Positions 908 to 49,007 of a DNA stretch of 64,000 nucleotides are shown here, piece by piece. Positions within the stretch are counted from its first letter, which is position 1, and each line of letters begins with the position of its first letter. Under the pieces are notes generated by a model. That model had not been told where the DNA came from and did not search any database. It saw only the letters and a list, made by a program, of their open reading frames with translations. This stretch comes from Haplodiscus bocki. Its lineage: Eukaryota. Where the stretch lies: positions 21,700,001 to 21,764,000 of the forward strand of contig OZ296649.1 in NCBI GenBank assembly GCA_965655095.1, given 5' to 3'. The translations under genes were made by a program, and so were the position numbers.

Positions 908-1580
908 ATGGTTGAAAAAATTACTAGTCTTTTTATAAACAAGATTTATGCCAAAATTCTAAAAAAAACAACTTATGCTACCAAAGAAACTGATGTATTT
1001 TACGTAGATGATACTTGAAGCACGGATTTATTAGAACCAAACGATTAAGGAACAACAAATACTAAAGGTCAAATATAAAACTCTGTAATTATCGATAATT
1101 TTTGTAAAATTGGATGTACTATTCCATTGGGAAAAATGCTCAAACAAAAAAAAATCCGATTGAAAACATTCTCAATTTTTCCAAGAGAAAACCAAATTTA
1201 ATTGAGACTAATGATGGAAAACAAGCTGTAAAATTTTTATATCATCTCCCAAAACAACTGTTACAAAAGTAATCGCTACTCATCAAAACGAGCAGTATTC
1301 GATGAAAGTTGTAACAGAACAATTAAAAATCTCCATAAAAACTTGTATTTGGAAAAGGTACAGGAAAATGGATCGATGTAATAAATACAGTAACAAAACA
1401 AAACAAATATACAAAATATCTTCATTTAATTTGACACCAATTCAAGTATCTTTTAAGAAGAATGAGGGATTTTTTTACATACATTCATTGAAGAAAAGTG
1501 AGACAATAAAACCAAAGTCTAAGCTAGGAGTTTTGGTTAGAACTGCAAACAGGAAGAAAGTTTTCATAAAAGGTGATGAT
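908..1580 (+). pseudogene. Polinton-type rve integrase, N-terminal and core part, truncated at ...KVFIKGD
   Basis: Degenerate YVDDT*STDLL, VIIDNFCKIG.TIPL, KRKPNLIETNDGK, LTPIQVS, KPKSKLGVLVRTANRKKVFIKGD. Confidence 0.88.
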
Positions 1581-2104
1581 TAGTGTTTATATATCGAATA
1601 TATTTATTCCCTTTTTTTGTAACCCCACATAGGGTTTTGTAGATTTCATGATTTTGAGAAGATGAGTTCGGTAATGAAAATCATACGTTTTTGCAATGTT
1701 GATTACCAGCAAAAATTTCAGTTATCAATTTCTGGGTGTATTGTTAGGCACCAGATTCCTTATGAAAAAGCGTAATTTTAACCAAAGAAGAAAAGTATCT
1801 TCAACCAGAAAAAAAATAACTATCAAAAAACTAACATACTTATCCAGTCACATCAAATGCATGAGCAATTACCAAATCATAAATGTAAATTTTTTTAGGG
1901 TTAGTATTTTGCTACTCCATAATGAATGTGGTGTTTAACTGTACAAGCAAAAACTGATCACTGAAAACAATATTCATAATTAAAATTGCAACAAAAAACA
2001 TGATTTTCATTTCCAAATTCATCGTCCAAAAATCAATAAATTTAGAGAATCGTAGGTGGTGATATGAAAAGTGGGGAATTTTTGTAATTGATAAATGCAC
2101 ACTG
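1581..2104. repeat. ~525 bp imperfect palindrome ('M', copy A): ~200 bp inverted arms around a ~120 bp core
   Basis: 1661 GATGAGTTCGGTAATGAAAATCA pairs with the reverse complement of 2001-2023 (GATGAATTTGGAAATGAAAATCA); termini TAGTGT...ACACTG; homologous to 46632-47163 and 41904-42238. Confidence 0.8.
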
Positions 2105-2204
2105 CTTTTTACAAAGTTTAATTGTAAACATAACAGTAACCAGTTCTTTATTTTCAAAAATTTAATATAAATTACAAAAGTTGGCTACCTCTTCTACAGT
2201 GAGT

Positions 2205-2960
2205 TATGCTAATGATTTTTTTAAACTTTATAAGGGCAAATAAACCAAGTGTATGAACTGTGATACCGTCAATAAATCCCTTAGCAGATCTGGATGTTAT
2301 GAACACATTAGATCAAATATCCTCTTACTAAAAACAAGAGGCTTAACAAGATGTGATATATGCAACAATGTTTAAACTGAAAATGGTCGACTGGTTTGTA
2401 AAAATTATGCAAATATTGTTGCACTGATATAAAGATATTTGAACGGGAAAACCGTATTACATCCGAAAACGGTCATGAAAACAAAAAAAAATTACTTCAA
2501 GAACAACCTCTCGATAATAAACGGAAGCTTTAACATTATTTTCTGATGTTTGCGATTTGACTTCGGAGGAAAAATATGGCGACGGCATTTAGAATCAAAT
2601 AAACATCTTCTTAAAACAGGTAACTTTATCAAAACTAAATGTGATACTTGTAGGTTTGATTCACCACAAAATTATCTCAAAAGGAATTTAAATGCAAACA
2701 GATACAAATACAATCTTCGTGAAAAAGAACATTATCTTCAAAAATATTAACCCCAACAAGCAAACAACTGTTCAGAAACAAAATGTGGAAGGTGCAATAA
2801 ATTTTTAAGAAGTGAAATAAGAGAAACCCTTAATCAATAAAAGAAACGCGGAGAAAAAAGTTCATCAAAGTATTTTTTAAGTGAAACTTGCAATATATTT
2901 GTTGAAGAATCAAATACTAAACACAAAAAACTTTAGCACACATAAGAAAATATAATGCAG
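2205..2960 (+). pseudogene. Array of C2H2-like (CxxC...HxxSxxH) zinc fingers upstream of, or fused to, pPolB
   Basis: CMNC..EHIRS, RCDIC, DVC..WRRHLESNKH, KCDTC, KCGRC, ETCN..KH. Confidence 0.7.
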
Positions 2961-5900
2961 AATAAACAACAAAACCAAATTCCAAAAGTGAAGAACCAAA
3001 TGAAAACGGGAAAGCAATTAAAATTGAAAACATAAAAAGAGCGGCTAGCACTGATTGTTCATTTGCTTACCACGAGAAACAGCACAACTTTTCAATCGAA
3101 TTTAAATCTTTAGCACCAGATTATGCTATTACATTTATCAAGATTTCCCAAAATGCAACATTTAACATGAATGATTTGAACAGAATACTTATAGAAACAA
3201 GTAGAACCTATGCAACAGTAAGTCACAAATAATATTTTAAATGCCCTGTATCCTTTTATGCTTTCTTTGAATAAAAAGGATATGATGTTAGACGTGATTA
3301 GTTTATTATTATTGCAACTGATTTTTACCTAAATACACCACAGGAAAGATTTGTATTCACCAATTGAAATTATTAAAAATAACATCCAACCAGAGTTACA
3401 ATCTATAATTGAAAATTTTGAGTAAAAGTAGTTCCGGATTTAGATTTGAAAGTCTTACTTTTGTGGTCAGAACGTATTCACAAACTGGAAAAAATTGGTG
3501 GAAGCAGTTACATTGATCTTCCTCATTACCGTAGATCAATTATTAACCCTCAAAATCATTATGATAGTAATTGTGCAATATGGTCAATCTTAAGCAAAGT
3601 TTCTTCAGAGGAACAATTGTATTTATACCTAGAAGATATGTAAAACATTTATTTTAATACAAGAAAAATACAGATTTCAGTGATGGATTTTAAATTAAAG
3701 ATATTCGCAAATTAGGAAGTTCGAAGAATTTCTGCAATAAAATCTTTGAACTTGATAATGCTAAAAATTTTTACGAAGGTGCTTTTAACCCAACATACAA
3801 CTCGATAAAAAAGAAACTATAAATCCTTTTGATTCATTGCTATACAAATAGCAATACTGTTTCAAAAAACAAACGCATGCTTTTGTCGGTTCACCAAACA
3901 GGACAAATTTATGTAGAAAATGTTTGTCATCCTATTCCACAGGAAGCTAAGTCTACACCAGGGATTCTGCTGAAACATGAACCATGTAAAATGAATCTTC
4001 CAGATGATAAATATTTTAAAATTACTATGTTTCGTTACAAACTAGTAGCATTACATTCTACAGAGTATGCAGACTTCGAATGCAATAATATTGCTATAAA
4101 CAAAACAAAATCGAACACCATATTCTTTACTGAGCAAAAACCTGTCACTTACGTTTTAGGCAAATTTTCCAAATTAGAAGAATCTCTTAAAATCTATATA
4201 TATTACAGACTTTGGTGGTGTATGTGTAAAATAATTTGTGAAATATATAACAAAATTACATAAAAACTTACTTCAGAAATATAGTCATACTAACTTCTTT
4301 TCGAAAATGACTGAAACAAAGTAAGGATTTTGATAAAGCTGATAAATGCTGGATATGTGAAAGGAACTTTGAAAAGATGAAGAAGCATTTTGTAAAAAAT
4401 ATAAAACATTTAATAATCCTAATGAAACAGTGAGCAATAACAAAAAACTGTCAAATGTAGAGGAGCATCATATCTTGTATGCAAATTGAAAATAAGATCA
4501 CCGTATTCACATTTTATGCCTATGGTTTTACATATTATTTCTAGGTATGATTCTGTTTTTTAATGACAACTAATTCCACAAAAACTTTTCAGAAAAAAAA
4601 ACGAACTTTAAGGTAATACCGAGAACAAGAGGAGAATATTTCACAGTTTTTCATGGTCATGTAATGTTCAAAAATTCCTAAAGTTTCAGGAATTTTCATT
4701 TAGGAAATTTAGTAAAAACATTGAAAGTTTCAGATATATATTTTTAAAAAACGTGTTTGGTGATCGGTGTGAAATTGTAAGAAGGAAAATGGGATACCAT
4801 ATGAAGCATATAAATCTATAGAAGTTTGCAGCAAAACTTTATCAGATCTCAAAGTAAAGATTATTCTTCATCATTGAAAGAAAACACCGGATCCATCTGA
4901 TACAAGCGAAAGATGTAAAAAATATTAGCTTAAAGCTGAAAAAGAATTTTTTATCTTTCTTAAAATATGTGATTTGTTAATATTAGCAGATGTTTTTACT
5001 GGATTTGTAATAGAATCATCTGAAACCTAAAAATGAAAACCATTATGTTTTGTGTCATCACCACGCTATACATATCAATCTGCATTAAAAATTACAATTC
5101 TCCAAAATGAATTTTCACAATCTGAAGATTTATTTCTACGTGTTTAAAATGCTTTACGAGAAGGTTCTTGCGGTGTTTGTGGACCTCGTTTTGTTGAAGG
5201 CAGTGAGAAAATTGTAATATTATGCGTAAAGGAAAAAAAATACATGGATGATGTATGTCCCAATGATTAGTTTCTATTGAAAAGAAATTTACAAAAATTT
5301 TTACAACAGAAGATGTTACAATAACACCAGAAGACTCCGATGTTGGATAGGCTGTAGATGTTAATCCAAAATCCCACGACAACATAAAAAAACAACATGC
5401 TTTCCACTTTGTTCGGAAAATTAGAAAGTGGATACAACATACTTCACAGACGTTTGTGAACAGCATTAAAGCAGCAGACTAAAAACCACGAAGAAAATTA
5501 GATTGCAAATGGACTGATAAATAAATGATTAATTTACCCAATAAAAACACCTAAAATTTTATGTTAACCACGGCACAGAAATTGTGAAAACAAACAAAAT
5601 TATGGTTTTAAAAGAAAAAGCAATTTTGAAATGATAATTGGATAAAAATACAAATTTTAGAACAAACGGCAAAAGCTGTGAATTTAGAGAAAAAATTCCG
5701 GTAGGTATGACCTGCAGCCTGTTTTTGTAAAAAAAAAAGGAGAATCCAGGAAAAAGAAAACAAACAAAAATTGTAACAAATTTTAAAAACTGTAAAAAAA
5801 GAGCAAAGTAATTTAACCTACAATGATAATACACAATATCCTTTTGAAGATGGTACTTCGCTTTGGAGCTGTACATTTCAGAAACAAAAGATTCTCCTGA

Positions 5901-6130
5901 ATAGGCCAATGGTAGTTCAATTTACTGTTTTATAACTGGCAAAAATATTTATTTATGAAAACTTTTATGATAAACCATAAGTATAATTGAGTGAAGAGTT
6001 TTTGCAATTCCAATACACTGATGCAGAATCAATTGCATAAGGTTTTGAGACGAGCGGCAAAGCCAGAAATTGAAAAACAAATTCACGAAACGTTTGATAT
6101 GTTTGATAACAGCAACCTAGAGACACAATT
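2960..6130 (+). pseudogene. pPolB lineage 2, copy 1 (N-terminus to just past motif C)
   Basis: GGSSYIDLP..IINPQNHYDSNCAIWSIL (~3497-3595), exonuclease YADFEC (~4066), KCWICE, CDLLILADVF, YGxCMSQ region, CxWTDK, QYTDAES (~6011). Confidence 0.9.
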
Positions 6131-6895
6131 TATTTACGAAATGAAAGAGAACTAGAGGATTCGAAACAAATAACAAAAAACAATGACAATTATATTGAAG
6201 ATGATAAAATTGAAAGTGATCTACTAAACCCTCTTTTTACACGTATTGTGAAAGAAAAAGGGACTTTTGTAAAAGAAAATTTATCTTAAATTGAATTTAT
6301 AAAGAGGTGCAAAAACTATTAGGAAAATAGCAAACGTCAGTAGTGTCAGATATAGTGTCGAACAATCAAATGAGGTAAAACGAGGTAAACCATCTTTTTA
6401 TATTCTGTTTTCCTTTTTTTCACCGCATAATGTAAAATCTGTTCTCAATTTCACACTTTTATTCAACAGAACACTTAAAAACATGCACAAATTCATGCCT
6501 TTTAGCAATTAATTGAAATAATGACACAAAAAACCCGGAAGAACGAGGAAAAAAAGACAAGGCTGGTTTTTTACATGTTTTGGTTGTTCAATACTATTTC
6601 TGACACTATTTGTAGACAAAAATTTGAACAAAAGACGTAGAAATCTGAATTTGTGTGTCCAAATCCGGTAAAATATTGATCACCGATGTTCGGGAGAAGA
6701 GAATATTTCAACAATAAATGCACAATTATTGTCAATTGCGATTAAAAATCAAATGTTTGTTCATCTTTTCTTTCATTTTAGAAATTAAAAAAGGTGTTTT
6801 TTTTTTAAAAAAAAAGGACTACCGTCAGAGTGCATGAGGATCTGTCCGCGTCACCAATAGTCGTAAGAAAACCTTAACAGTGTTCAGCTTCCTAA

Positions 6896-7070
6896 ATGTG
6901 AAAACAAGTCCTAATTGACAAATTCATCAAAACAATTTGTTCTAAACCTGCTAAGAAAAATTATGATACAATCAAAACTGTGGTCAAACACATTGAAAAC
7001 ACTTGGAGATTAGGTTTTTCAGATTTGGTAGAATATGGAACAAAAAATAATAAAGGTTTTAGATATATAA
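6896..7070 (+). pseudogene. Integrase N-terminal fragment
   Basis: DKFIKTICSKPAKKNYDTIKTVVKHIENTW..DLVEYGTKNNKGFRYI; near-identical (inverted) to 38735-38910. Confidence 0.85.
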
Positions 7071-7081
7071 ATTGATAGTAA

Positions 7082-7345
7082 TGTAAATTCATTACATGCA
7101 GCCTCCATTTTTCAAGAATAATTGAAGGTTTACAAACTGAAAGTTTTATTTTATTTTAGCCAGTTTCAATTCTAATGTCTCTTGTCGCTTTGTATGACTA
7201 TTTTTTTTACTTTATGTATTAGTTTTACTATCTCCAAAATTAGTGTTCCATTCTTGTTAGCGGGGATATTTCTAGAACGATCCATTTCAATTTGTAGAAA
7301 GTCACAATTCTTCATATCCATTTTTTCACGATTCACATTCACAAT
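7082..7345 (-). pseudogene. Minor capsid-like gene N-terminal fragment
   Basis: NKNGTLILEI..SHTKRQETLELK..EKWRLHVMNL resembles the starts of the genes at 15150 and 43000. Confidence 0.65.
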
Positions 7346-9320
7346 GGATGTGAAAAATCATTTGTTACATGTATAAGAGAAGTTGATGAAAGCTTACATC
7401 AAATATATAGTCGTACTGAATTTCCTTCAAAAATGACTGAAACAAAATGAAGAAGAATTCGATAAAGCTGACAAATGCTGGATGTGTGAAAAGAGCTTTG
7501 AAGAAAAGAAGAAGCATAATGTAAATATTACAAAAACATTCAATATTCCTGAAAAAAACAGTGAGCAATAATAAAAGTAAGGGATCGCCGAAAAAACATG
7601 AAAAATTCAAGGTGAGAGACCATGACCATTTAGCAGATAAACTCAAAGGAGCAGCATATGTTGTATGCAAATTGAAAATAAGATCACCGTTTTCACATTT
7701 TATGCTTACCGTTTTACATATTTTGTCTGGGTATGATTCTTTTTTTAATGACAACTAATTCGACAAAAATTTTTAAAGAAAACGAAATTTAATGTAATAC
7801 AAAATACAAGAACAGAAGAATTTACAGTTGTTCATGGTCATTTAAAGTTCATAGATTCTTAAAGTTTCAGGAATTTTCATTTAGCAAAATTAGTAAAAAC
7901 ATTAAAAGTTTCAGATTTTTCTTAAAAAAGGAGTGTTTGGTGATCGTTGGGAACTTGTAAAGAAGAAAATTGTATTCCCCTATGAAGCATATATATCTAC
8001 AGAAGTTTGCAGCAAACCTTTGTCAGATCTCAAAGTAGAGATGATTCTTCATCATTAAGAGAAAACAGCGGATCCAACTGATACAAACGAAATAAGTAAA
8101 AATTTTAAGCTTAAAGCTGGAGAAAGTATTTTTATCTTTTAAAAAGTATGTGATGTGCTTATATTAGCAGATGTTTTTACTAGATTTGTAATAGAATCAT
8201 CTGAAAGTTATATATCAAAACCATCAAGTTTTATATCATTACCAGGCTATACATATCAATCTGCATTTAAAATGACATTTTCCCAAAATAATTTTCACAA
8301 TCTGAAGATAAGTTTCTACCTGTTTAAAATGCTTTACGAGAAGGTTTTTGCGGTGTCTGTGGACCTCGTTATGTTAACCGAAGTGGGAAATTTGTAATGT
8401 TATGCATAGAGGAAAAAAATTTTTATGGTTGGTGTACATCGCAGTGTTTACTTCTAATTGAAAGTAAATTTATAAAAATTCTTAAAACAGAAGTTGTTTA
8501 AAAAACACCAGTAGACTCTGATAATGGATAGGCTGTAGACCTTAATCTCAAATCCCACGACAATATAAAAGAAACATGATGTTTTCCTATTTGTCCGAAA
8601 AATTAGAAAGTGGAGACAACATTCTTCACAGACTTCTGTGAACAGCATTAAACCAGCAGACTAAAAACCACAACGAAAATTAGATTGCGATTGGACTGAT
8701 AAATAAATGATTAGTTTACCCAATAAACAAACCTAAAAGTTTATGTTAACCATGGTACGGAAATTGTGAAAACAAACAAAATTATGGGTTTAAAAGGAAA
8801 ACGAAATTTGAAATTATCTATGAATATGAACACAAACTTTAGAGCAAAAGGCAAAAGCAATGAACATAGGGAAACCATTCCGGTAGGTATGACCTGCAGC
8901 CATTTTGATAAATGAGTGGAGAATGCACGAAAGAAAAAGAAAACAAGTGAAACTTGTAACAAAATTTAAAAATTGTAAAAACGAAGCAAAGTAAACTAAT
9001 TTGCAATGAATATACACAGTACCTTTTCAAAGATGGTACTCCAATTTGGAATTAAACATTTCATAAACAAACAAGTCTTTTTTTTAGGCCATTAATAATT
9101 GAATCTACTGTTTTATATTTAGCAAAGTTTTATATATATATGGAAACTTTTATGATAAATTACAGGCATAATTCGGCGAAGATAGCTTGCAATTCCATTA
9201 TGCTGATACAGAATCATTTGTATTAAGTTTTGAGACAAGCAAATTAGTCGGAAGTTTGTAAACTGGACAAAACAAATTGATACGTTTGATTTCAGTAACC
9301 TAAAGAAACACAAATTTTTC
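7345..9320 (+). pseudogene. pPolB lineage 2, copy 2 (endonuclease VII-like insert to motif C)
   Basis: KCWMCE, KVRDHDHLADKLKGAAYVVC, LHILSGYDS, FPYE, DVLILADVF..SLPGYTYQSA, CDWTDK, HYADTES. Confidence 0.9.
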
Positions 9321-9659
9321 ACAAAAAAATGACCTAGCTGATTCGAAACAAATAACAAAAAACTATGAAAATGACATTGGGGATGATAAAATTGGAAGTG
9401 ATCTACTAAACACTTTTCAAAGGTAAAGTGAAAGAACAAAACTTTTGAAACGGATGAAATGTCTAAAAATAAATCTATAAACAGATTCATTTACCTTTAG
9501 GAAAAAAACGTCAGTAGTCTCAGATACAGTGTTGAACAACCAAGGCAGGTAAAATGCCATTACTTATTTTTTACCGCATATTCTCACATATTTTCTGACT
9601 TTCAACCTTTTATTCAACATAACAATCTAAAAAACGCACGAATTCATGCATATCAGCAA

Positions 9660-11205
9660 TTGGTTTATTTATATTTTATGAACCATGTGATGTGCTGTCC
9701 TTAACAGTTCTTTTTTTGTTTTGTTAGAGAACCTTTGGAAACCTATGCTTTAAAGCCATTTCATTCTGTATCATTCCATTCAAGGCTTTACATATCAACG
9801 TGTGTTAAAAAGACAGAAATGAAAATTGAAATTTCACAAGCTAAAGAATTATTCTTACCTGTGAAAAAATTTATTCCAGGGGTTTTTTCAGGTTTTTGTG
9901 GACCTCGTTACTTTAAATGAAGTGGAAGTATTTTAAAAAAATACGTAGATGCATGCAAATATTCATATGGTTGGTGTTTATCGCAAAGTTTACTTTTTAT
10001 GGAAAATAAATTTACAAAGACTGTTACAACAGAAGATACTTCAAAAACACCAAAAGTTTCTGATATTGGATATGCTGTAGACGTTAATCTGAAATCCCAT
10101 CACAATATAAAAACACGAAGGACATATATTCCATTTTTTTCGAGAAATTACAAACTGGATACAACATTCTTAACAGATTTATAACAGCATTAAAACAACA
10201 GACTATGGACAACAAAGAAAATTGCTTTCCGATTGGATTGATAAAACCTAATGTTTTCCACATTTAGAAAAAAAAAATTTTATGTTTCTTGGCACGGAAG
10301 TTATGAAAACAAGTAAATTTATGAGTTTAAAACCAACCATGAAAGCATATTTACATATAAATACAAACTTAGGAGCAAGAAGCAAAGCCATCACATTTTG
10401 AGAAAAAAGTCCCAGAGGTATGACTTGCATCCTACTTTCGAAACTAATGGAGATCCCAAGAAAAAGAAAACATACAAAAATTTTATCAAGGTGTAAAAAA
10501 TTTAAAAACGAGCAAACTAATTTAACTTGCCAGGACTATACACGATATCCTTCAAGAAATGGTACTTCTTTTTGGATTCACACGCTTGATAGAGAAAAAA
10601 TACTATTTTGTAAGCCAATACTAATCGAATTTACTGAATTAGAAAAAGCATAGTTCTTTGTGTATTAAGCATTTTACGATAAACTGCAACCGTATTTCTG
10701 TGAAGATAGATTGCAATTGCATTATACGGACACAGACTCAGTTGTATCAAGTTTTGACACAAGCAACCTGATTACAGATTGAAAAATTCGGGAAACGAAA
10801 TTTGATATGTCTGATTTCAGCAACCGAAAGAAACACCGAGATTTATAAAACACAACAACTGAAAAAGTTTTTGGTAATTTTAAAAAAGAACCACCAAGTA
10901 CAATTGATGTTGAATAATTTTGTGCATTGAAAGCGAAAGATAATTGTTTCAAAACTAAACGTGAAAGTGAACGTATACAACTAAAGGAGGTATCAAAAGA
11001 AGCATTAAAAATTGTTAAATTTGATAGAGACTTGAATTTTTTGAATGATATTTTTTTCAGAAGATGAAAATTCAATTAACGCAACACATAGAAACAAAAA
11101 TAAAAATCATACATTGGAAATACAATCAACAAACGAAAAAAAACTTTGTGAATTTGATGATAAAAAGGAAATATATAAACGCAAAAGAGAGTGAGTCTTG
11201 AGGGA
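9660..11205 (+). pseudogene. pPolB lineage 2, copy 3 (exonuclease III to C-terminus)
   Basis: CDVL, CGPRY, YVDA..YGWCLSQ (motif A), DWIDK, KPILIEFTELEKA, HYTDTDS (~10720-10740), GNFKKE, CEFDDKK. Confidence 0.9.
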
Positions 11206-11359
11206 AGAAATATCACCACTGTCTTTGTTTACCTTTTTCTACTGTGAATGCATCTATACTTTTATTACATGTCTGGTTTTGTATGTTGTTTTTAGGTTTG
11301 GGCAATTTTAACTTAACTAAATAAAAACAGGGATTTCTTTATTAGATTATACTAAATAT

Positions 11360-14925: not shown

Positions 14926-14927
14926 TA

Positions 14928-16175: not shown

Positions 16176-16229
16176 TTTTAATTGTGAATCTGTTTTGTGT
16201 AAAGTTAAAATTTTTAAAAACGAATCTAA

Positions 16230-17314: not shown

Positions 17315-17330
17315 AAAACATATTTTATAA

Positions 17331-17725: not shown

Positions 17726-17774
17726 AGTTAAAATATACAAAACAGTTTTATTGTCGCAAAAAAGTCGGCTACTA

Positions 17775-18275: not shown

Positions 18276-18284
18276 ATTGGTCTT

Positions 18285-28925: not shown

Positions 28926-28946
28926 ATTAAATCGAATCCATTATAA

Positions 28947-38040: not shown

Positions 38041-38200
38041 TCTTTTTTTTTACTGTAATTCATTTAGTTTTAACTCTTTTAAAGAGACTATCGTTGTGTT
38101 ATTTCGTTAATGCTGTCTTTTCTTTAAAACTTCGTTTCAAGTTTCAGAAAAAGAGTCTAGATAGTAACTTGGGAATGTGTCGTCTATTTGTTTTGTTAAT
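35870..38200 (-). repeat. ~885 bp diverged tandem repeat (integrase tail plus zinc-finger gene start), about 3 units
   Basis: Homologous blocks start near 35871, 36757 and 37638; GAATCTAGACAGTAGCTTG-like motif at ~36380, ~37259, ~38154. Confidence 0.8.
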
Positions 38201-38910
38201 GGAAAAAGATCATAGCTGCAGCTTGTAGTATCTCTTTAGTAAAAAGCTTTACGTAAAATAGACGTTCTTACTAATTTTTTCTTTTACTTCAGATTTTGGC
38301 TTTCTTTTTTTGTTTGTATCTTATGTTTTTGTTTACTTCATTTTCATTAAAATTTATTGATGCTCGACTTCGTGTCCTTTTTGTGGAACAAGGGATGTAA
38401 TTTTTGCATTTTGAGGTACTTCGGTAAATCGTGAATACAATTTGCAATTGTTTTTTGATAGACTGGTTCTTTAAGTAGATCACGTATCGTTGCTTTTTAA
38501 CGATCAACAAAATTGCTCCTTTGTTTGTATATCTACTATATTTTTCAAAATAATTGCTATTTGAGAACTGTACGAAAACCTTGTTTAGAAATTGTTTTTC
38601 CACATGAGTGTCAATTAGATTTGGTTCAAAATTAGATTGAGGAATGATATTAGGAGATTCATCAGTTATAGTTTGAGCGGCTTTCTCTGATGCAGTACAC
38701 TACCTGTATATACTAAAATTACCAATTACTACTATTATATATCTAAAACCTTTATTATTTTTTGTTCCATATTCTACCAAATCTGAAAAACCTAATCTCC
38801 AAGTGTTTTCAATGTGTTTGACCACAGTTTTGATTGTATCATAATTTTTCTTAGCAGGTTTAGAACAAATTGTTTTGATGAATTTGTCAATTAGGACTTG
38901 TTTTCACATT
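38065..38910 (-). pseudogene. Polinton-type rve integrase, full length and not split
   Basis: SKPAKKNY..GFRYIIVVIGNFS..AQTITD..PNLIDT..KYSRYTNKGA..LVRTSILRKAF.(K/G)DTTSCSYDLF..DDTFPSYYLD. Confidence 0.88.
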
Positions 38911-41901
38911 TAGGAAGCTGAACACTGTTAAGGTTTTCTTACGACTATTGGTGACGCGGATAGATCCTCATGCACTCTGACGGTAGTCCTTTTTTTTTAA
39001 AAAAAACACCTTTTTTAATTTCTAAAATGAAAGAAAAGATGAACAAACATTTGATTTTTAATCGCAATTGACAATAATTGTGCATTTATTGTTGAAATAT
39101 TCTCTTCTCCCGAACATCGGTGATCAATATTTTACCGGATTTGGACACACAAATTCAGATTTCTACGTCTTTTGTTCAAATTTTTGTCTACAAATAGTGT
39201 CAGAAATAGTATTGAACAACCAAAACATGTAAAAAACCAGCCTTGTCTTTTTTTCCTCGTTCTTCCGGGTTTTTTGTGTCATTATTTCAATTAATTGCTA
39301 AAAGGCATGAATTTGTGCATGTTTTTAAGTGTTCTGTTGAATAAAAGTGTGAAATTGAGAACAGATTTTACATTATGCGGTGAAAAAAAGGAAAACAGAA
39401 TATAAAAAGATGGTTTACCTCGTTTTACCTCATTTGATTGTTCGACACTATATCTGACACTACTGACGTTTGCTATTTTCCTAATAGTTTTTGCACCTCT
39501 TTATAAATTCAATTTAAGATAAATTTTCTTTTACAAAAGTCCCTTTTTCTTTCACAATACGTGTAAAAAGAGGGTTTAGTAGATCACTTTCAATTTTATC
39601 ATCTTCAATATAATTGTCATTGTTTTTTGTTATTTGTTTCGAATCCTCTAGTTCTCTTTCATTTCGTAAATAAATTGTGTCTCTAGGTTGCTGTTATCAA
39701 ACATATCAAACGTTTCGTGAATTTGTTTTTCAATTTCTGGCTTTGCCGCTCGTCTCAAAACCTTATGCAATTGATTCTGCATCAGTGTATTGGAATTGCA
39801 AAAACTCTTCACTCAATTATACTTATGGTTTATCATAAAAGTTTTCATAAATAAATATTTTTGCCAGTTATAAAACAGTAAATTGAACTACCATTGGCCT
39901 ATTCAGGAGAATCTTTTGTTTCTGAAATGTACAGCTCCAAAGCGAAGTACCATCTTCAAAAGGATATTGTGTATTATCATTGTAGGTTAAATTACTTTGC
40001 TCTTTTTTTACAGTTTTTAAAATTTGTTACAATTTTTGTTTGTTTTCTTTTTCCTGGATTCTCCTTTTTTTTTACAAAAACAGGCTGCAGGTCATACCTA
40101 CCGGAATTTTTTCTCTAAATTCACAGCTTTTGCCGTTTGTTCTAAAATTTGTATTTTTATCCAATTATCATTTCAAAATTGCTTTTTCTTTTAAAACCAT
40201 AATTTTGTTTGTTTTCACAATTTCTGTGCCGTGGTTAACATAAAATTTTAGGTGTTTTTATTGGGTAAATTAATCATTTATTTATCAGTCCAATCGCAAT
40301 CTAATTTTCGTTGTGGTTTTTAGTCTGCTGGTTTAATGCTGTTCACAGAAGTCTGTGAAGAATGTTGTCTCCACTTTCTAATTTTTCGGACAAATAGGAA
40401 AACATCATGTTTCTTTTATATTGTCGTGGGATTTGAGATTAAGGTCTACAGCCTATCCATTATCAGAGTCTACTGTTGTTTTTTAAACAACTTCTGTTTT
40501 AAGAATTTTTATAAATTTACTTTCAATTAGAAGTAAACACTGCGATGTACACCAACCATAAAATTTTTTTCCTCTATGCATAACATTACAAATTTCCCAC
40601 TTCGGTTAACATAACGAGGTCCACAGACACCGCAAAAACCTTCTCGTAAAGCATTTTAAACAGGTAGAAACTTATCTTCAGATTGTGAAAATTATTTTGG
40701 GAAAATGTCATTTTAAATGCAGATTGATATGTATAGCCTGGTAATGATATAAAACTTGATGGTTTTGATATATAACTTTCAGATGATTCTATTACAAATC
40801 TAGTAAAAACATCTGCTAATATAAGCACATCACATACTTTTTAAAAGATAAAAATACTTTCTCCAGCTTTAAGCTTAAAATTTTTACTTATTTCGTTTGT
40901 ATCAGTTGGATCCGCTGTTTTCTCTTAATGATGAAGAATCATCTCTACTTTGAGATCTGACAAAGGTTTGCTGCAAACTTCTGTAGATATATATGCTTCA
41001 TAGGGGAATACAATTTTCTTCTTTACAAGTTCCCAACGATCACCAAACACTCCTTTTTTAAGAAAAATCTGAAACTTTTAATGTTTTTACTAATTTTGCT
41101 AAATGAAAATTCCTGAAACTTTAAGAATCTATGAACTTTAAATGACCATGAACAACTGTAAATTCTTCTGTTCTTGTATTTTGTATTACATTAAATTTCG
41201 TTTTCTTTAAAAATTTTTGTCGAATTAGTTGTCATTAAAAAAAGAATCATACCCAGACAAAATATGTAAAACGGTAAGCATAAAATGTGAAAACGGTGAT
41301 CTTATTTTCAATTTGCATACAACATATGCTGCTCCTTTGAGTTTATCTGCTAAATGGTCATGGTCTCTCACCTTGAATTTTTCATGTTTTTTCGGCGATC
41401 CCTTACTTTTATTATTGCTCACTGTTTTTTTCAGGAATATTGAATGTTTTTGTAATATTTACATTATGCTTCTTCTTTTCTTCAAAGCTCTTTTCACACA
41501 TCCAGCATTTGTCAGCTTTATCGAATTCTTCTTCATTTTGTTTCAGTCATTTTTGAAGGAAATTCAGTACGACTATATATTTGATGTAAGCTTTCATCAA
41601 CTTCTCTTATACATGTAACAAATGATTTTTCACATCCATTGTGAATGTGAATCGTGAAAAAATGGATATGAAGAATTGTGACTTTCTACAAATTGAAATG
41701 GATCGTTCTAGAAATATCCCCGCTAACAAGAATGGAACACTAATTTTGGAGATAGTAAAACTAATACATAAAGTAAAAAAAATAGTCATACAAAGCGACA
41801 AGAGACATTAGAATTGAAACTGGCTAAAATAAAATAAAACTTTCAGTTTGTAAACCTTCAATTATTCTTGAAAAATGGAGGCTGCATGTAATGAATTTAC
41901 A
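38735..41901 (-). repeat. Near-identical inverted, circularly permuted copy of 5510-8713
   Basis: 38735-40292 is the reverse complement of 5510-7070; 40271-41901 is the reverse complement of 7082-8713; matching ORFs are identical (e.g. 7365..7754 and 41229..41618). Confidence 0.97.
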
Positions 41902-41903: not shown

Positions 41904-42238
41904 TTGACCAAAGAAAATTTATCTTCAACCCGAAGAAACTGGATAACCATCAAATTATTAAAGAATAGATCCATTCACTTCAGGTATATATACATATGCA
42001 ACTACAACAACGAAAAGATAGGTTTTTTTTAGTTAAAATCATGTTTTTTTCATAACGAGTCTGTTGCCTAACAACACCACCCAAAATTCAAAACTAAAAA
42101 CATTGTTGGTTTTCGACGTTGCACAACTGTCTGATTTTCATTACCAAATTCATCTTTTTTCTCTAACTCATGGAATTTAAAAGACAGCAGGTGGTGATAA
42201 CAAAAGGTAAACAATACCTAAAATCGATATACACAATA
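41904..42238. repeat. Half palindrome M (core plus right arm), copy C
   Basis: TTGACCAAAGAAAATTTATCTTCAACC...GATATACACAATA matches 46829-47163. Confidence 0.85.
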
Positions 42239-42239
42239 T

Positions 42240-42410
42240 ACTGAGACAAAACAAATTGGTCTCACAAGTTGTATACAATTACTGAATATTTTGATGATAA
42301 ATTACCAGCCTATCATATGAATGTTTTGCTTGAAAGAAATAACGAAGTTTTGTTGAGAAAAACAGTTTCCTCAATGAAAGAGAAGAAAAAAGCTTGAAAA
42401 ACTACTATTC
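42240..42410 (+). pseudogene. Integrase C-terminal tail (copy at 47165-47335)
   Basis: DKTNWSHKLYTITEYFDDKLPAYHMNVLLERNNEVLLRKT aligns with the tail of the unsplit integrase at ~38070-38235. Confidence 0.8.
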
Positions 42411-42419
42411 AATCATTCC

Positions 42420-42810
42420 CCTAGTGTATACAATTTCAGTAATTCCATTTAAATTCAGTATAAAAAACAAAACTACAAGTAAAAAAAATTGCAGCAAAAA
42501 ATGAACAATCTAGCACTAGAGTCAAAATTATATAAAGGAGACAATAAATTTTCAACAAAATCTGCCATGGCCACGTTACATCTTCTTGAGGGAACTCATG
42601 GGGTCTGTTTTCTTGACAGTTACTATCTTGGTTCCTCTGGATATGCTCCACCTGAAATAAAAGTTATTTAAACTAAAAGTAAACAAGTAAAATGTACCTA
42701 TTCTGAATATCAAATTCAGAAAAAAGTCTTTGTGGTAGTTATTGTTTATATTTTTTTATTGCACAGTTTTGTTTTCAACGGATATTCAAACAGTAGTTTC
42801 AATTTTGTAA
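42420..42810 (+). pseudogene. Adenain-like cysteine protease (internally deleted copy at 47345-47690)
   Basis: LHLLEGTHGVCFLDSYYLGSSGYAPP, KCTYSEYQIQ, SLCGSYCLY (catalytic His, Gln and Cys positions visible). Confidence 0.85.
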
Positions 42811-42999
42811 CAAAACAAACGACTAGATCAAAAATAAAACAAGAGACCAAAATTATACCAACAACAAAAACAGTACCAAAAGAGCAGGAAAACGAAAAAG
42901 CCAAACTGCATTTGTTCGAAAAAGATCATAAATTTGTTGTACAAGAAATGGTGTCGGCTAATGTATTTGACGAATTATGATTTACTATAAAACAATATC

Positions 43000-43815
43000 A
43001 GTCTCTTTAAACTTAGCCCCACTAACAAGGATGAAACACTATTAATCGAGACACTATTAATGAGTAATTTTGTTGCATAAAGTAAAAAAAACCCATACGA
43101 AACCACAACAGGCCTCTGGAATTCAAAATGACTAAATTAAACCAAATTTTGTATTTTTGATCAACCTTCAAATTCTCCTGAGAGATGGATGATGGTTGCA
43201 ATGAATTTACAAAATTATAATACTGTTTGCAACTAAACTGACAAAAAAGATAGTATTTCTCAGTATAAAACTGGTTATTGTGAACAGGAACTTGTTGACT
43301 TTGAGCAGTTGAAAAAATAATTGCACCAAAAACGCCAGAACACACGTTAAAAACTAAAACAAGTTTAGTAATTAAATATGATAATGAATTAAAAGTAAAA
43401 GGTGAACATGGATATGAAAAAATCACTTTTTAACAGTTCCTGACCGTGAATTGCCTCGAAAAAAACCCATAGAAAGATTGAAAGAAGTGAATTACTTACG
43501 GATTTTTTTGGATGAATATCTGGATATGTATTGTAGATTGCAAATAACCAGTGAAGAAAATGAGTAAAATTTGGGGTAAATTTATTTTCGGCCAAAATTA
43601 TTAGTTTATGAAATACCTGTACGAATTTACGTACTAGTTGACATCGAGGACGCCTCTCGAGAAAAAAAAGAACGTTAAGCCGATTAAAAAACAATGAAAA
43701 CATCTTTTTTACAACAAAACAAGAAAAAATTTCAACTTTGATTTGAATGAAATTTTAGGTTTTGCAAGGAGAAAATATCCTGCTTGAACACATTTAGGTG
43801 AAAAACCTACGAAAA
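43000..43815 (+). pseudogene. Minor capsid-like gene, 3'-truncated (copy ~47875-48655)
   Basis: NKDETLL..THTKPQQ.LEFKMTK..WMM..NLQ; YEIP..Y; ILGFARRKYPA*THLGEKP. Confidence 0.6.
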
Positions 43816-43824: not shown

Positions 43825-46550
43825 ACTGAAGGTTTGCCTGCAGCTGCTACGTTTTTAAATGCTTTATAGGTGATTTTTATTTTCTTTTTTTGGAGTTCCC
43901 AACGATCACCCTTTACTTTTTTAGTTATTTCAAAATCAGAATCTTTCAAATGTTTTTACTAATTTTGTTAAAGGCATAATCATCAACCTTAAAGAATCTA
44001 TAAATGTTATATGCCACAAATAATTCTGAAACGTTTTTCTCTAGTTTTTGGTAGTACACTAAGTTTCCATTTCTTTATATCTTTTTCGGAATAGATCTGT
44101 CATTTGAAAAAATGAGAATCATATCTAGACAGGTTTTGTAAAACCATAGGCATAAAATGTGAACACGATGATCTTACTTTCAAAATGCATACAACATATG
44201 TTGCTCCTCTGAATTAACCTGTTAAAAGGTCATGATCTCTCATTTTGAAAACTTCGTATTTTCTCAGCAATCCCTTAATTTTATAATTGCTCACAGTTTT
44301 ATCAGGAACATTGAATGTTCTATAGTATATACAAAATGGTTCTTCATTTTCTCAAAGTTCCTTTCACACATACAACCTTTATCAGTTTTATCAAAATCTT
44401 CATTTTTTTCAGTCATTTTTGAATGAAATTTAGTACGACTATATATTTGATGTAAGGTTGTACCTAATGCTGTTGTATGTTTCACAAGTGATTTTACACA
44501 GCCACCACCAGAGTTTGCAATACGTTAAAAGTTCAAAAAGTAATCTAATTTTGAAAAAAATGCGCGGCCGTAGGTGATTGCTTTCTGCTCATAAAGGTGT
44601 TTGGTTTTCGTTTTTGTATTGTTTAATGGAAAAAAATTGCATTCAAAATCTGAATTTGCTGTAGAATGTAATGGTATCCTGTAACGAAAGCTAAACAAAT
44701 GTTAAGATCCCTCATCTGGAAATATCTTTTCACATGGTTCACGTTTCAGGCAGTTTTCTTAATTTAGATATTTTTTGTTTTCAGTTGGAGAGGATGATGA
44801 ACAAATACTTCAAAACTAAGTTCTGTTTGATGAGTGGGCCGACAAATAAATGCAATTTTTTATGTTAACCTGTAATGGTTTTTGTAAAGGTGTAGGTCAA
44901 AACATTTAAATTTTTTTCCTGAGATGTACAGAGGGTAAAAGCAACGTCTCAAAAACTTCTAGGATTATCAAACTCAAATTCTTTAATGCACAAGTCATTT
45001 ACCTTTTCTAATCTAGGAATTTCTTTAATTTGAAATCCGTTGGTGGAAACTATATTTCCTCAATTTATTATATTAAAATGTTTTAAAATACTATTAGGTA
45101 TGGATACATTTGTTTTCACTAGGATTACTTTGATTGAGATGGACCATTTTGCACAGCAAATATAATTATGATTTTGAAGGCTAATATTTGAACTATGGTT
45201 TTGAGAAAGGTCAATCTAACTGCTTCCACCCATTTTGTCAGTTTGTGAAAACCTTATGTCCATAACAAAGAGACTTTGAAATCTAAAACCAAAATCAATC
45301 AGTTCAAAACCTTCAATTTCAGATTGTATTTCTGGTTAGAAATTATTTTCATTTTTTTGATTTTGTGATCATGTTTTTTCTGTGGTATATTTTGATACAA
45401 ATCAGTCTCATTAGGTGTAAAATCAACATTCCCAGTCTCATGCTGTTTTTTTTGTCAAAGAAAGCATGAAAAGATACATGGTTCATGAAGTTTGATTTGT
45501 TAATCTTTCTTGCATAGGTTGTACTTGTTTCTTTCAGTATTGTGTTCATAACATTTATGTTAAATGTTTCATTTGGCGGAATCCCAAAAATTGCAGTAGC
45601 ATGTTCTGGTGTTAACGACTGAAATTGGTTAATATAACTTTGTGCTATTTCTCGTGGTGAAGCAAAAAGACAATTAGGGCTAGCCACTTCTATGTTTTGT
45701 AATTTAATTAAATTTTCGTTTCCAAAAGTTTTTTAAGTTTTGGTCTCTGGTTTTGGTGTTTGTTCTTGTTGATATTTTTTTGTGCTTGCTAAGGTTTCAT
45801 TGTGTTGGGTATGTGATTGTGTAACATATCTACTGCAAGTTTCACAAAAATAAAGTTTTGATGAAATATTCTAACCTCGTGTTTTGTTATTTTTTCTGAT
45901 CGATTATAGGTTCTCCAATTTTCACGATTGAAGTTTTCAAAGCAAAATGCACAATTTCATTCTGAACAGTCGTGTGCTTCTTTGGGTTTTTTTTATAAAG
46001 ATTGCATATTGTTTTTTCTCCGAGTTTTCATTTAGGTTTGATTGATTTAATATTTCCTTTAGAAAATTTTTGTGGTTTTTCAATATTAGAAGTATTAAAT
46101 TCAGGTTTGAAAATGTCTTAGGAAGATGTTTATTTGATTTTTCAAGGCGTTGCCAACTTTTTTTGTTAATAATCAAATTGCAAACATCACCAGATACCAA
46201 TAAACTTTCCATTTATTAGAGATTTTGTTTTTGAAATAAATTTGGTTGACATTTTTTTGCTGGTTTCGTTTTCATTAGTAAGATGGTTTCCCCTGTCAAC
46301 TAAGTTAATATTTGTACAACAATATTCGCCTTCTCTTACGAATATGTCGACTTTTTTCATTATAAACATTTTTGCATTAATCACATCTTGTTAAGTCGCC
46401 TGTTTTTAAAAAAATTGATGTACTGATCTAATGTGTTTATTTCATCCAGTTTCGCTAAAGGATAGATTGCAGGTACCACTATTTAAACAAGTGGTTTTTC
46501 TGTTCTCATAAAACTTAATGAAGTAGTTGGCACATCTCACAGTGGAAAAG
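43825..46550 (-). pseudogene. Zinc-finger array plus N-terminal half of pPolB lineage 2 (diverged inverted homolog of ~2170-4840)
   Basis: DVCNLIINKKSWQRLEKSNKH, ASPNCLFA..FQSLTPEHA, GGS*IDL, ANSDFEC, CMCERNF, RDHDLLTG*FRGATYVVC, NLSRYDSHFF, FIDSL, GDRWEL. Confidence 0.88.
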
Positions 46551-46631
46551 GTGGGTAATTTTCATCATATATGAAACTTTGGCAAAAAAATGGATACAGT
46601 TGTGGTTATAAATAAATTTTGTGGTGAAGAA

Positions 46632-47163
46632 GATTGTGTATTAATCGATTAGTTGTATTCCCCAATCTTTGCATCACAAAATAGAGTCTCGTAATTTTCA
46701 TGATATTTAGAAAATGAACGTCGTTCTGAAAATCATACTTTTTTGCAATGTTGATCATCAGCAACAATTTTTTTATCAGTTTTTGGTTGTATAGTTAAAC
46801 ATCTTATTCTTCATGAAAAAGCGTAATTTTGACCAAAGAAAAAATATCTTCAACCCCAAAAAAATGAAAAACCATCAGAATATTAACAAATAGATCCATT
46901 CACTTCAGGTACATATACATATGCAACTACAACAACAAAAGCATAGCTTTTTTTATAGTTAAAAATATGCTTTTTTCATAACGAGTCTGTTGCCTAACAA
47001 CACCACCCAAAATTGAAAACTAAAAACATTGTTGGTTTTTGACGTTGCAGATTTGTCTGATTTTCATTACCAAATTCATCTGTTTCTTTAACTCATGGAA
47101 TTTAAAAGACACCAGGTGGTGATGAAAAAAGGTAAACAATACCTAAAATCGATATACACAATA
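46632..47163. repeat. Palindrome M, copy B
   Basis: Arms ATTGTGTATTAATCGATT...AATCGATATACACAATA; GAAAATCA/TGATTTTC pairing; same core as 1780-1890. Confidence 0.8.
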
Positions 47164-49007
47164 TACTGAGATACAACAATTTGGTCTCACAAGTTGTATA
47201 CAACTACTGAATACTTTGATGATAAATTACCAGCCTATCATATGAATGTTTTGCTTGAAAGAAGTAACGAAGTTTTGTTGAGAAAAACAGTTTTTCCAGT
47301 GGAAGAAAAAAAGAAGGTTTGAGAAACTGTCTTTACAAAATTCTTTTAGTGTACACAATTTCAGTAATTCTATAAAACTTCAGTATAAAAAACAAAGCTA
47401 CGAAAAAATATATACTGGAGACAAAAAACTTTCAATAAATTCTGCCATAGCCACGTTACATCTTTCCGAAGGAACTCTTTGGGTCTGTTTTCTTGACAGT
47501 TTTTATCTTGGTTCCCCCGGATAAGCTCCACCTAAAAATAATATTATTTACACTAAAAGTAAACAAGGAAAACGTACTTATTCTGAATATCAAATTCAGA
47601 AAAAAGTCTTTGTGGTAGTTCTTGTTTATATTTTTTTATTGCATATTTTTGTTTTCAACGGATATTCAAACAGTAGTTTCAATTTTGTAACAAAACAAAC
47701 GACTAGATCAAAAATAAAACAAGAGACCAAAATTATACCGACAACAACAACAGTACCCAAAAAGCAGGAAAACGAAAGAACGAAAACTGCATTTTTTTGA
47801 AAAACATCTTAAACTTGTCGTACAAAAATGGCCTCGGCTAATGGGTTTAACGATTTACGACTTTCTTTAATACAAAGTCGATCTTTTCAAAATTGGCCCC
47901 ACTAACAAGAATGAAACACTATTAATCGAGACAGTATTTTTGTTGCAAAAAGTATAAAAACACCCATACAAAACCACAAGAGGCCTTAGAATTCAAAATG
48001 ACTCAATTAACCCAAATTCTATAAATTTGATAAACCTTCGAATTTTCCTGAGATGGATGATGGGTGTAACCAATTTACAAAATTTTAATATTGTTTGCAA
48101 AAAAAACTGACAGAACTAATAAAAGTGGTCGGTATATACCTGGTTATTACGAACCGGACCCCGTAGAATTCGAGATTTTCCAAAGATTTTTAGACCAAGA
48201 AACGCCAGAATACGCTTTAAAAGCAAAACTGGTTTAGCAAGAAGGTAGGGAAATGAAATTTAAAAAAGGCGAACATGGAATTGAATACTTTACTTTTTTT
48301 TACCAGATCTTGATTATGAATTACCTCAAAAAATCCTCTAGAAGGGTTGAAAGCGATGAAATACGGACGACATTTTCTTGACGAAGATTTTGATATGTAT
48401 TGTAGAATGCAATTAACGAGTAAAGGAAGTGTGTTTTTATGATGGTAACTTTATGTTGAACCAAAGACAATGAATATTGAAATACCTTCAAAAATTTATG
48501 GATTAAATGACAGTAAATACGCTTCTCAACAAATTATTCAACTTAAAGCCGATGAAAAACAATGAAAAAACTTTTCAACTCTGATTTCATTAACGTTTCA
48601 GGTTTTGCAAAGAAAACATATCCTGTTGGAACAAATCTAAATGAAAAATTTACAACATCTTTATTAGAAGCCAATTTAGTATAAGACATCGTAGCGGTGG
48701 GAAATTTGAGAAAAATGCCCAAAGTCCCTGTAAAGGTAAAATAAAACAAGACAAGAACTTTTTTCGGTAAATATGGTATTGAGGGAATAAATTATAAACT
48801 GGATAATCTATCTCAGGGTGTTTTTTTGTCTAATATAAAGTTCAGAAAAGGCCAGTTCAATGCCAACATTGACATATAATTTTTATGCGAAGACTTCGTT
48901 CTTGATAAAAATTTTGGTGATGAAAATTCAGTTTGACTTCAGATGATAATAAAAATATGAATGTTGAAAAAAAAACAAAATTGTTCACTAATTTATGCTA
49001 GTGGATT

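Follow-up and report, generated by a model that had tools for sequence, protein, structure and literature searches.

The closest described systems are the Polintons or Mavericks (Polintoviricetes, adintoviruses), as defined in bioRxiv 10.1101/2023.08.22.554363 and PMC11296320, and the Halocafeteria virophages and PLVs, in which a palindrome lies at the extremity of the TIR, beside the TSD, and hairpin priming has been proposed (bioRxiv 10.64898/2026.07.28.741278). In the available portion of the latter report this palindrome measures 52 nt and is tied mainly to replicases other than pPolB, and whole-length palindromes are not described there. Further parallels are adenovirus 12 SYREC, described as helper-dependent (PMC2396429), and the hairpin-ended replicons (poxvirus, rudivirus SIRV2, parvovirus), whose dimer junctions have a palindromic axis and for which dimer intermediates and self-priming are described (PMC5062984).

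The window, by which we mean the whole 64,000-nucleotide stretch of Haplodiscus bocki DNA analysed here, contains an integrase gene in two distant pieces. We estimate a probability of about three in four that it records one insertion, with a 6-bp TSD, of a whole-length palindromic Polinton derivative bounded by the terminal repeat M, probably a satellite that replicates by snap-back and is integrated by a helper. The parts of the locus are as follows; Pfam searches of 17 mostly decayed fragments gave nothing useful.

1-876, + strand: 3' end of the pPolB of host Polinton Y, degraded, with its 5' start about 2.65 kb upstream of the window (tblastn with an intact natural pPolB)
908-1578, +: intN, the part of Y's rve-type integrase that covers residues 1-227, degraded (alignment to the reference integrase)
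1573-1578, +: left TSD copy, 6 bp, GTGATG (overlap of 6 nt in 22 of the 29 relatives that align well)
1579-2106, +: M copy A, a terminal repeat complementary to itself, with two arms (about 215-245 bp) and between them an asymmetric loop (about 100 bp) in the common orientation; decayed AGTAGT-type ends
2107-12535, +: arm A of the palindromic element, with conserved inner flank and ZnF-pPolB carrying later internal duplications
9331-9509, 11705-11938 and 12253-12535: O131 remnants in arm A
5550-8730, +: recent inverted copy of 38704-41901, about 100% identical, circularly permuted, ends approximate (300-bp tiles)
12536-39464, −: nested autonomous Polinton Z in place of the centre, AGTAGT termini
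12536-12804: self-complementary TIR of Z
15149-30247, +: capsid/ATPase module of Z, triplicated in part
30328-33552, −: pPolB of Z
38062-38903, −: integrase of Z
39465-41638, −: inner part of arm B, C-half of pPolB and O131 remnant
41904-43805, +: copy C, comprising partial M (to 42242), intC' and protease; old tandem duplicate of B's right junction (tiles 70-96% identical to 46829-48568)
43854-46629, −: outer part of arm B, inner flank and N-half of ZnF-pPolB
46630-47167, +: M copy B, the terminal repeat on the right, its loop flipped into the less common orientation
47168-47173, +: right TSD copy, GAGATA
47168-47319, +: intC, residues 227-276 of Y's integrase
47408-50750: rest of Y, with protease (47408-47677, +), ATPase (49298-49899, −) and major capsid gene (50297-50750, −)

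A first-pass annotation had described an integrase broken at one codon, with its missing tail right behind M copies B and C, and both observations hold. Indeed, intN runs up to residue 227 of the reference integrase (PF00665, E 6e-12) and M begins directly behind it (1578/1579); M ends at 47167 in copy B and at 42242 in copy C, and the tails at 47170 and 42245 both start at residue 227. The two pieces are halves of one gene, as had been proposed: they come from the same integrase subfamily (rho 0.68, p 1e-6, 40 relatives) and, laid on uninterrupted relatives, share exactly 6 nt (22/29). Because of this common subfamily and exact overlap, the sequence comparison identifies a single insertion of one 45.6-kb element, with a 6-bp target duplication, into the older Polinton Y. 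Y is an ordinary member of the Polintons/Mavericks, having pPolB, integrase and capsid module (judged by genes, TIRs being located for Z only). The two TSD copies agree at 4 of 6 bases. The motif GGTGA, noted to the left of both A and B, was rejected as a TSD: its occurrence beside B is a coincidence, the conserved inner flank showing it in reverse complement, and the true duplication flanks A on its left and B on its right. That intN and intC are normally contiguous had been argued from the unsplit integrase at 38062-38903; the contiguity stands, by way of sister loci elsewhere, which are the better proof (three genomic loci are matched by both the intN query and the downstream query), whereas the gene invoked falls in a different subfamily, its DNA being 57-58% identical to that of intN and intC, and belongs to a separate nested element. 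A PF00665 search of the genome returned mostly long-frame, retroelement-like matches, which were set aside.

M is a self-complementary terminal repeat of Polinton type, neither a MITE nor a recombination site. It is an inverted repeat of about 530 bp with arms about 69% identical, and copy A folds at -65.9 kcal/mol, compared with -40.9 ± 5.1 kcal/mol for 30 mononucleotide shuffles. As previously noted, its inner side in both A (+) and B (−) is joined to one and the same conserved sequence upstream of ZnF-pPolB; the idea that it forms the ends of one element was equally sound, M copies bounding arms A and B with the TSD outside them. M was not accepted as a pair of TIRs fused at their ends, as the AGTAGT ends face outward. 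The loop was scored in 22 copies, 19 in the common and 3 in the flipped orientation, and a head-to-head M junction was found at C11:79.43 Mb. Solo M (about 520 bp) with a TSD occurs at C1:157.70 Mb (6/6) and probably also at C1:153.69 Mb. Clear solo copies account for only 2 of 24 M loci and most other M copies are ends of pPolB elements, so that M does not show the dispersal of an ordinary MITE, whose short non-coding TIR copies lie with TSDs at many unrelated places. Two MITE insertions followed by recombination, another earlier suggestion, disagree with the one 6-nt overlap and with arms A and B being each other's nearest relatives.

The clean break inside the integrase, repeated at the junction of copy C, had raised two further ideas: that integrase genes of related viruses are the element's target, or that M splits and rebuilds the integrase. 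Both are very unlikely, since copy C is a local duplicate, leaving M as a splitting or rebuilding site without support, and insertions show no preference for integrase genes: integrase flanks 1 of 20 old sites and lies at the junction of none of 10 young sites. It occurs in 2 of 29 old-family flanks, both from the window locus, and the young sites gave one integrase match 265 bp away (four young flanks are shorter than 250 bp). The integrase query has 15,234 candidate matches in the genome; if 5,000-15,000 of these are genes, they fill 0.3-0.9% of it, and one integrase site in 30 would be met by chance with a probability of about 8-23%. Repeated insertion into one gene or motif, the mark of a target-specific transposon, was not found, and the TSD hexamers differ among 16 sites.

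The centre of the inserted element has been replaced by Z, a third, ordinary Polinton in which pPolB, integrase, capsid module and TIRs are all present. Z joins arms A and B at the same base of O131 in both; it would have entered later, near the end of O131, with subsequent loss of the centre, and its symmetric junction may stem from insertion into a hairpin duplex or from a later hairpin deletion. Copy C, judging from its tiles, is a local duplicate and no independent insertion. Sequence transfer from arm to arm is also visible within the window. Searches for the family axis in the window with 11 old centres gave no convincing match, Megablast found no match for the exact ends of the recent duplicate (5550-8730), and a protein database search with the Z integrase yielded 0 of 291 candidates. 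As the element's own TSD matches at 4/6 and its centre is gone, it is assigned to its family by M, by the pairing of its arms and by O131.

A whole family is normally built with inverted pPolB arms. Among old copies, inverted arms were found at 14 of 24 M loci, O131 at 16 M loci and a homologous axis at 10 loci; two copies (C2179 and C11:79.42) fold at another point. The old arms have decayed to 65-81% identity, and the TSDs of six two-ended copies match at 30 of 36 bases, a value that none of 200,000 random draws attained. In this family the whole-length palindrome runs from terminus through pPolB and the marker gene O131 to an asymmetric loop, followed by the mirror copy, over 14.5-20.6 kb (inflated in 6 of 10 scored young copies by an N gap at the axis). 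O131 has 1,743 candidate matches in the genome, and the best 150 include 29 convergent pairs and no divergent or same-strand pair; most of these 150 are open frames of 131 codons, 85-100% identical. Long palindromes were present at 10/10 sampled O131 pairs and 2/10 sampled singletons, the remaining eight singletons lying against a 200-N gap close to where the axis is expected; no internal gap occurs in four young copies. Young TSDs (n = 10) match at 6/6 in eight and 5/6 in two, genes are intact and arms are mostly 96-99% identical. Moreover, the closest relative of each arm is its own partner, in 12/12 young and 6/6 old elements (the window element included), so both arms of a copy derive from one template.

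The pPolB of a young copy has intact motifs (PF03175, E 4.9e-24), and the window arms match pPolB by tblastn. None of the 16 complete copies held integrase, MCP, mCP, protease or ATPase (the queries could miss an integrase of very divergent sequence); the same search was positive in the equally decayed Z and in two controls. Asymmetric AT-rich loops of 42-224 nt were found in 12 of 15 axes tried. Self-complementary termini occur in 0 of 12 young copies, so M-type ends are unnecessary for the palindromic build. The arms scanned showed no recognisable Rep/HUH nuclease or resolvase, and no DNA homology was seen between old and young axes. Beside one young axis, contigs from four runs (two samples, one study) covered 29-30 of the 30 bins, with no piece across the axis. 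O131 hit no Pfam family over the cut-off and no usable Atlas match; protein searches returned 610 clusters and 201 representatives, all unnamed and the 201 mostly fragmentary, and it was found in one short metagenomic contig and in no viral contig.

O131, joined in young copies by ZnF and HTH, forms a common core, and the outer module of terminus and pPolB varies between deeply different types, the termini being of AGTAGT, AGTAT or AATAAT type. One young arm resembles 8 of 11 helper regions compared (TIR 71-84%, pPolB about 90% identical) before passing into family-specific genes; six others carry a distant pPolB clade. In a copy at C4:88.37 Mb, terminus and pPolB are nested among young helpers; this helper-like pPolB is also compatible with repeated origin from helpers. 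A pPolB tree of 13 rows, all broken pPolBs left out, gave a firm deep split, two separate groups not being supported by the tree alone (65/60). For one pPolB clade, 98 of the best 150 matches lie in divergent pairs or beside O131; all 34 pairs are divergent. O131 itself was found in 0/12 helper regions and 0/59 short helper loci. With helper-type TSDs and ends and no integrase, the inserted elements lack helper functions and appear mobilised like a helper; they are likely Polinton satellites.

Compared with Polintons, the palindromes likewise have pPolB, AG-type or similar short termini, a 6-bp TSD (within the 5-8 bp that defines the group) and a length of 14-21 kb. They differ in lacking integrase, capsid, protease and ATPase, in carrying every gene twice, in their family-specific core and varying outer module, and in an inverted repeat that covers the whole element except the loop, in place of a TIR of 100-1500 bp and a unique body. 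M (about 530 bp) and the TIR of Z (265 bp) recall the shorter Halocafeteria palindrome. MITEs and Foldback transposons have long inverted repeats, and solo M resembles a MITE; here, however, the arms contain coding genes, a replicative polymerase among them. Adenovirus SYREC reportedly has a symmetric genome with two identical origins on a palindrome, and phi29 is said to have palindromic defective molecules. Those are laboratory one-offs without conserved genes of their own, whereas the present elements form a natural lineage that is integrated in chromosomes in high copy number, has its own polymerase and spans two ages or more. Hairpin-ended replicons have AT-rich loops, nearby tandem repeats and flip/flop isomers. 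The palindromic axis with its asymmetric loop, the two M loop orientations and the head-to-head M junction are an indirect likeness to them; their dimer is a transient intermediate, whereas here it is the integrated form, known from chromosomal sequence. The literature searched, Repbase and Dfam lying outside that search, held no match, and the whole-length palindrome family is apparently undescribed so far.

Because pPolB is present twice and integrase and capsid genes are absent, copying probably proceeds through a fold-back hairpin with borrowed Polinton tools. Protein-primed strand displacement from one end would free a strand self-complementary from end to end, which would snap back to form a duplex of half the length, with the AT-rich loop at its closed end. 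pPolB could then re-initiate at the open end, pass round the loop and rebuild a dimer with two identical ends, which the integrase of a helper Polinton would insert. As element length matches that of Polintons, helper capsids may package the dimer. M would be the same stem-loop design at small scale, and such a cycle would explain its two loop orientations, the junction at C11:79.43 Mb and solo M with TSDs.

Other origins of the palindromes must be weighed. They could be repeated accidents, template switching in autonomous Polintons yielding defective molecules with two left ends that integrate once and are dead ends. The C4:88.37 Mb copy, the symmetric defective genomes known in adenovirus (SYREC) and the two old copies folding at other points would agree with this, but O131 is shared by 16 old M loci and the young family yet absent from the helper regions and short helper loci compared, the axis is homologous at 10 old loci, one pPolB clade is so largely paired divergently or beside O131, and O131 has stayed open in most of its best copies. 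We therefore regard accidents as distinctly unlikely. Fold-back reads, as a source of assembly artefacts, would account for the 200-N gaps and duplicated sequence at many axes and for the 3.2-kb window stretch duplicated at about 100%. They would not give left and right flanks that are different sequences tied by direct 6-bp repeats (in the window, halves of one gene), old arms that differ by 20-35%, or four young copies without internal gaps, and this explanation is hardly credible.

It is also unlikely, though conceivable, that these are non-autonomous Polintons whose TIRs have grown to full length, spread by host polymerase or by excision and reinsertion and kept alike by chromosomal gene conversion, with no hairpin replicon. 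Coding TIRs of about 2 kb are described for butterfly polintons (in the accessible part of bioRxiv 10.1101/2025.02.07.637071), and transfer between arms is seen in the window. However, conversion does not hold arms together that have fallen to 65-81% identity, pPolB stays intact in young copies, and a displaced self-complementary strand would snap back anyway. The hairpin replicon remains our preferred reading. Whether it stands for a distinct class of animal DNA-virus satellite is evenly balanced in our judgement: such a class would be a self-replicating palindromic pPolB element alternating between snap-back monomer and helper-sized dimer, keeping a private core (ZnF-HTH-O131-loop) for long and swapping its outer module of terminus and polymerase to follow the supplier of integrase and capsid.

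Polinton replication and integration have hardly been tested so far. A palindromic derivative that keeps its polymerase and lacks integrase predicts half-length snap-back DNA, integration in trans and size-selected dimers, and many young insertions are available for checking this by observation alone. As scaffolds break at the palindrome axis, the elements would be hidden in assemblies, and searches requiring several core genes, such as the nematode survey (bioRxiv 10.1101/2023.08.22.554363, from its accessible part), would miss them elsewhere. They would be a natural source of hundreds of chromosomal palindromes of 15-20 kb, which bears on genome instability and accounts for a class of assembly gaps. 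If the reading is true, satellite and defective-interfering biology would extend to animal Polintons, in a natural, still-young counterpart of defective-interfering genomes present in hundreds of copies.

Using intact natural proteins of the same genome as queries, we found that the integrase of a host Polinton, Y, is broken at the self-complementary repeat M and that its missing tails directly follow M copies B and C, as the first-pass annotation had proposed. Its further claim, that inverted ZnF-pPolB arms join M at one point, also held: the inner side of both full M copies leads through a common flank into ZnF-pPolB genes pointing in opposite directions. The layout, within decayed Polinton-type sequence piled up from position 1 to ~51,500 of the window, C2:21700001-21764000, is as follows.

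Features of the window
908-1578: integrase residues 1-227 (intN)
1579-2106 and 46630-47167: M copies A and B, a ~530-bp inverted repeat
12536-39464: Z, an ordinary Polinton whose AGTAGT ends are common to dispersed relatives
42242: end of partial M copy C, which arose as an old tandem duplication of the right-hand junction of B
42245 and 47170: integrase tails beginning at residue 227 (intC)
After intC: protease, ATPase and capsid genes, the right side of Y

We take this to be the anatomy of a single insertion, with a probability of about 0.93. The left flank could be aligned with 45 of 46 related integrase loci, and 29 gave good alignments to both flanks; in 22 of the 29 the flanks meet with an overlap of exactly 6 nt (7, 8 or 11 in the remainder), so that the suspected common breakpoint is borne out. 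The hexamers in the window, GTGATG and GAGATA, are alike at only four of six bases, which is consistent with the ~70% identity between the arms. Likewise, the expectation that intN and intC come from one subfamily was confirmed by their correlated identities across 40 relatives (rho 0.68, p 1e-6), a pattern that the halves of the Z integrase do not follow. Three loci are common to the best 40 matches of intN and the best 40 of the sequence downstream of intC. It had also been suggested that the element targets integrase genes. Of the 29 outer flanks at 20 old sites, two contain integrase, both belonging to the window locus, and none of 10 young sites is a split integrase (one match lies 265 bp away; four flanks are shorter than 250 bp), which speaks against targeting. 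The Polinton load of the genome is very heavy (15,234 integrase and 10,958 pPolB candidates, many with long open frames; these are matches, not copy numbers), and with integrase matches so numerous a hit by chance is no surprise. The split integrase represents a nested insertion of the ordinary kind.

Polintons typically have AG-type ends. Alignment of 16 natural M copies showed outward-facing AGTAGTGT-type ends, two long arms and a conserved asymmetric loop. M had been offered as either an ordinary MITE or an element end; the end role stood, with inverted arms near 14 of the 24 M loci examined, and a solo, MITE-like state was seen at only two (C1:157701651-157702171, with a perfect 6-bp TSD, and C1:153693887-153694416), other loci being one-armed, truncated or too briefly covered. 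The GGTGA noted earlier on the left of M is no duplication: at copy B it is simply the conserved inner flank read as its reverse complement. The M loop faces one way relative to the body at 19 ends and the other way at three (window B, C1665, C217), two of the 24 loci being unscorable. At C11:79429500-79430500 a single M has the inner flank on either side, a head-to-head junction palindromic over ~1 kb. Tandem arrays of M-containing units adjoin or lie within palindromic elements at C8:52701800-52716200 (~1.4 kb), C217:30001-89176 (~5 kb) and C5:102133000-102171000 (~4 kb).

The inserted element is palindromic along its whole length. Old, M-ended copies span 14.5-20.6 kb and read M-pPolB-O131 > axis < O131-pPolB-M, O131 being a 131-codon marker gene; their two arms share 65-81% identity.

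M-ended palindromes with this layout
C3:20.83 Mb
C2:132.43 Mb
C8:52.72 Mb
C1:134.11 Mb
C4:27.08 Mb
C5:88.34 Mb

The axis is homologous at 10 old loci; C2179 and C11:79.42 fold at other points. Across six two-ended copies (the window, one solo copy and four full ones; counted without C8:52.7, with tandem ends, C5:102.1, with an inverted flank, and C1:153.7 and C5:63.3, with uncertain termini), 30 of 36 bases agree between the flanking hexamers, a score that none of 200,000 random draws reached.

The window lacks the family axis; arms A and B join Z at the same position near the O131 end. Two histories fit the data: insertion of Z into one arm with later loss of the distal hairpin between near-direct repeats, or insertion of Z into a hairpin duplex followed by copying to both arms and collapse. 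The window was built up in three layers, with Y the oldest, the palindromic element next and Z last; local duplications came afterwards. The Z family carries self-complementary TIRs of ~265 bp (window 12536-12804; L220:1113-1379; L222), and therefore M is not alone in having self-complementary ends. Within Z, the minor capsid-ATPase block (14864-27680) holds ~3.2 tandem repeats of a 4-kb unit at 91-94% identity, ~900-bp tandem repeats (35538-38220, 67-69% identity) overlap the 3' end of the integrase, and 28529-28705 is a 177-base N stretch. An inverted, circularly permuted 3.2-kb copy, ~100% identical (38704-41901 against ~5550-8730), may stem from a circle that re-integrated by homology, or from an assembly effect. 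Fragments at ~57000-60300 resemble, by eye, a putative LTR-retroelement protease/polymerase region.

A pPolB search led to a young element at C4:88.366-88.385 Mb, with a perfect TSD and arms 98.8% identical that hold open frames for a 1208-aa pPolB, a ZnF protein, an HTH protein, O131 and a 218-aa protein. O131 matched 16 old M loci, 0 of 12 helper regions (helpers being ordinary Polintons with their own integrase and capsid genes) and 0 of 59 short helper loci. Among the best 150 of 1,743 genome-wide candidates, 85-100% identical, there were 29 convergent pairs 2.4-7.9 kb apart and no other arrangement. All 10 pairs sampled were palindromes, as were two of the 10 singletons sampled; the other eight singletons adjoin a 200-N gap close to where the axis is expected, so that nothing can be said of their far arms, and inverted sequence is visible in six. 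On several small contigs O131 lies 1.5-3 kb from the contig start and points toward it, as if the contig had broken at an axis. That the palindromes are artefacts is very unlikely. Of 13 young palindromes, 10 have both ends (two are truncated, one extends past the sequence stretch); these 10 measure 15.3-19.8 kb, six of them with an internal gap, and their TSDs match at 6/6 bases in eight and 5/6 in two, the terminus being shifted one base in two cases to fit the common end motif. AT-rich asymmetric loops of 42-224 nt occur at 12 of 15 axes tried, with tandem repeats on both sides of the only fully read axis. We found neither self-complementarity in young ends nor DNA homology between young and old axes. 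A palindromic element at L236:2333-2761 (+) has an additional ORF that weakly matches a GNAT acetyltransferase (E 2e-4, below cut-off).

Integrase, capsid, protease and ATPase cores were found in 0 of 16 complete palindromic copies; the identical search detects them in decayed Z and two controls. Repeated dead-end accidents, or chromosomal conversion without a hairpin replicon, are unlikely explanations of such palindromes. Each left arm is nearest to its own right arm (12/12 young, 6/6 old elements), including those of the window (72.8% to each other vs at most 69.6% to other arms). The outer module varies, with ends AGTAGT, AGTAT or AATAAT and pPolB inward or outward. One palindrome arm is ~90% identical to young helpers across pPolB; six palindromes have a pPolB of a distant clade, whose best 150 matches form 34 divergent pairs and no other arrangement. 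The account that we favour starts from this observed anatomy, the TSDs, gene content, single-template arms and modular ends. Strand displacement by pPolB would free a strand that folds up as a hairpin duplex of half length; a new initiation at the open end of this duplex would restore the dimer, and a helper integrase would insert it. This hairpin cycle is probable; helper packaging, hinted at by a dimer length close to that of Polintons, is a tentative proposal, and for a satellite and hairpin cycle jointly we see even odds.

Judged by the definition in PMC11296320 and bioRxiv 10.1101/2023.08.22.554363 (the latter also giving a length of 13-25 kb), the palindromic element behaves like a non-autonomous Polinton but departs in integrase, capsid genes and TIR-plus-unique-body layout. 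Published work describes coding TIRs of 2 kb (bioRxiv 10.1101/2025.02.07.637071), 52-nt terminal palindromes with a hairpin-priming model (bioRxiv 10.64898/2026.07.28.741278) and helper-dependent SYREC (PMC2396429); further comparison drew on PMC6431247, PMC5062984 and bioRxiv 10.64898/2026.10.13.758929. Full-text searches of literature other than subscription journals, Repbase and Dfam showed no whole-length palindromic Polinton derivative, so prior annotation may exist. All together, H. bocki carries mirror-symmetric pPolB elements that lack integrase and capsid; they form an abundant family whose members are of at least two ages and which very probably constitutes a self-propagating lineage.
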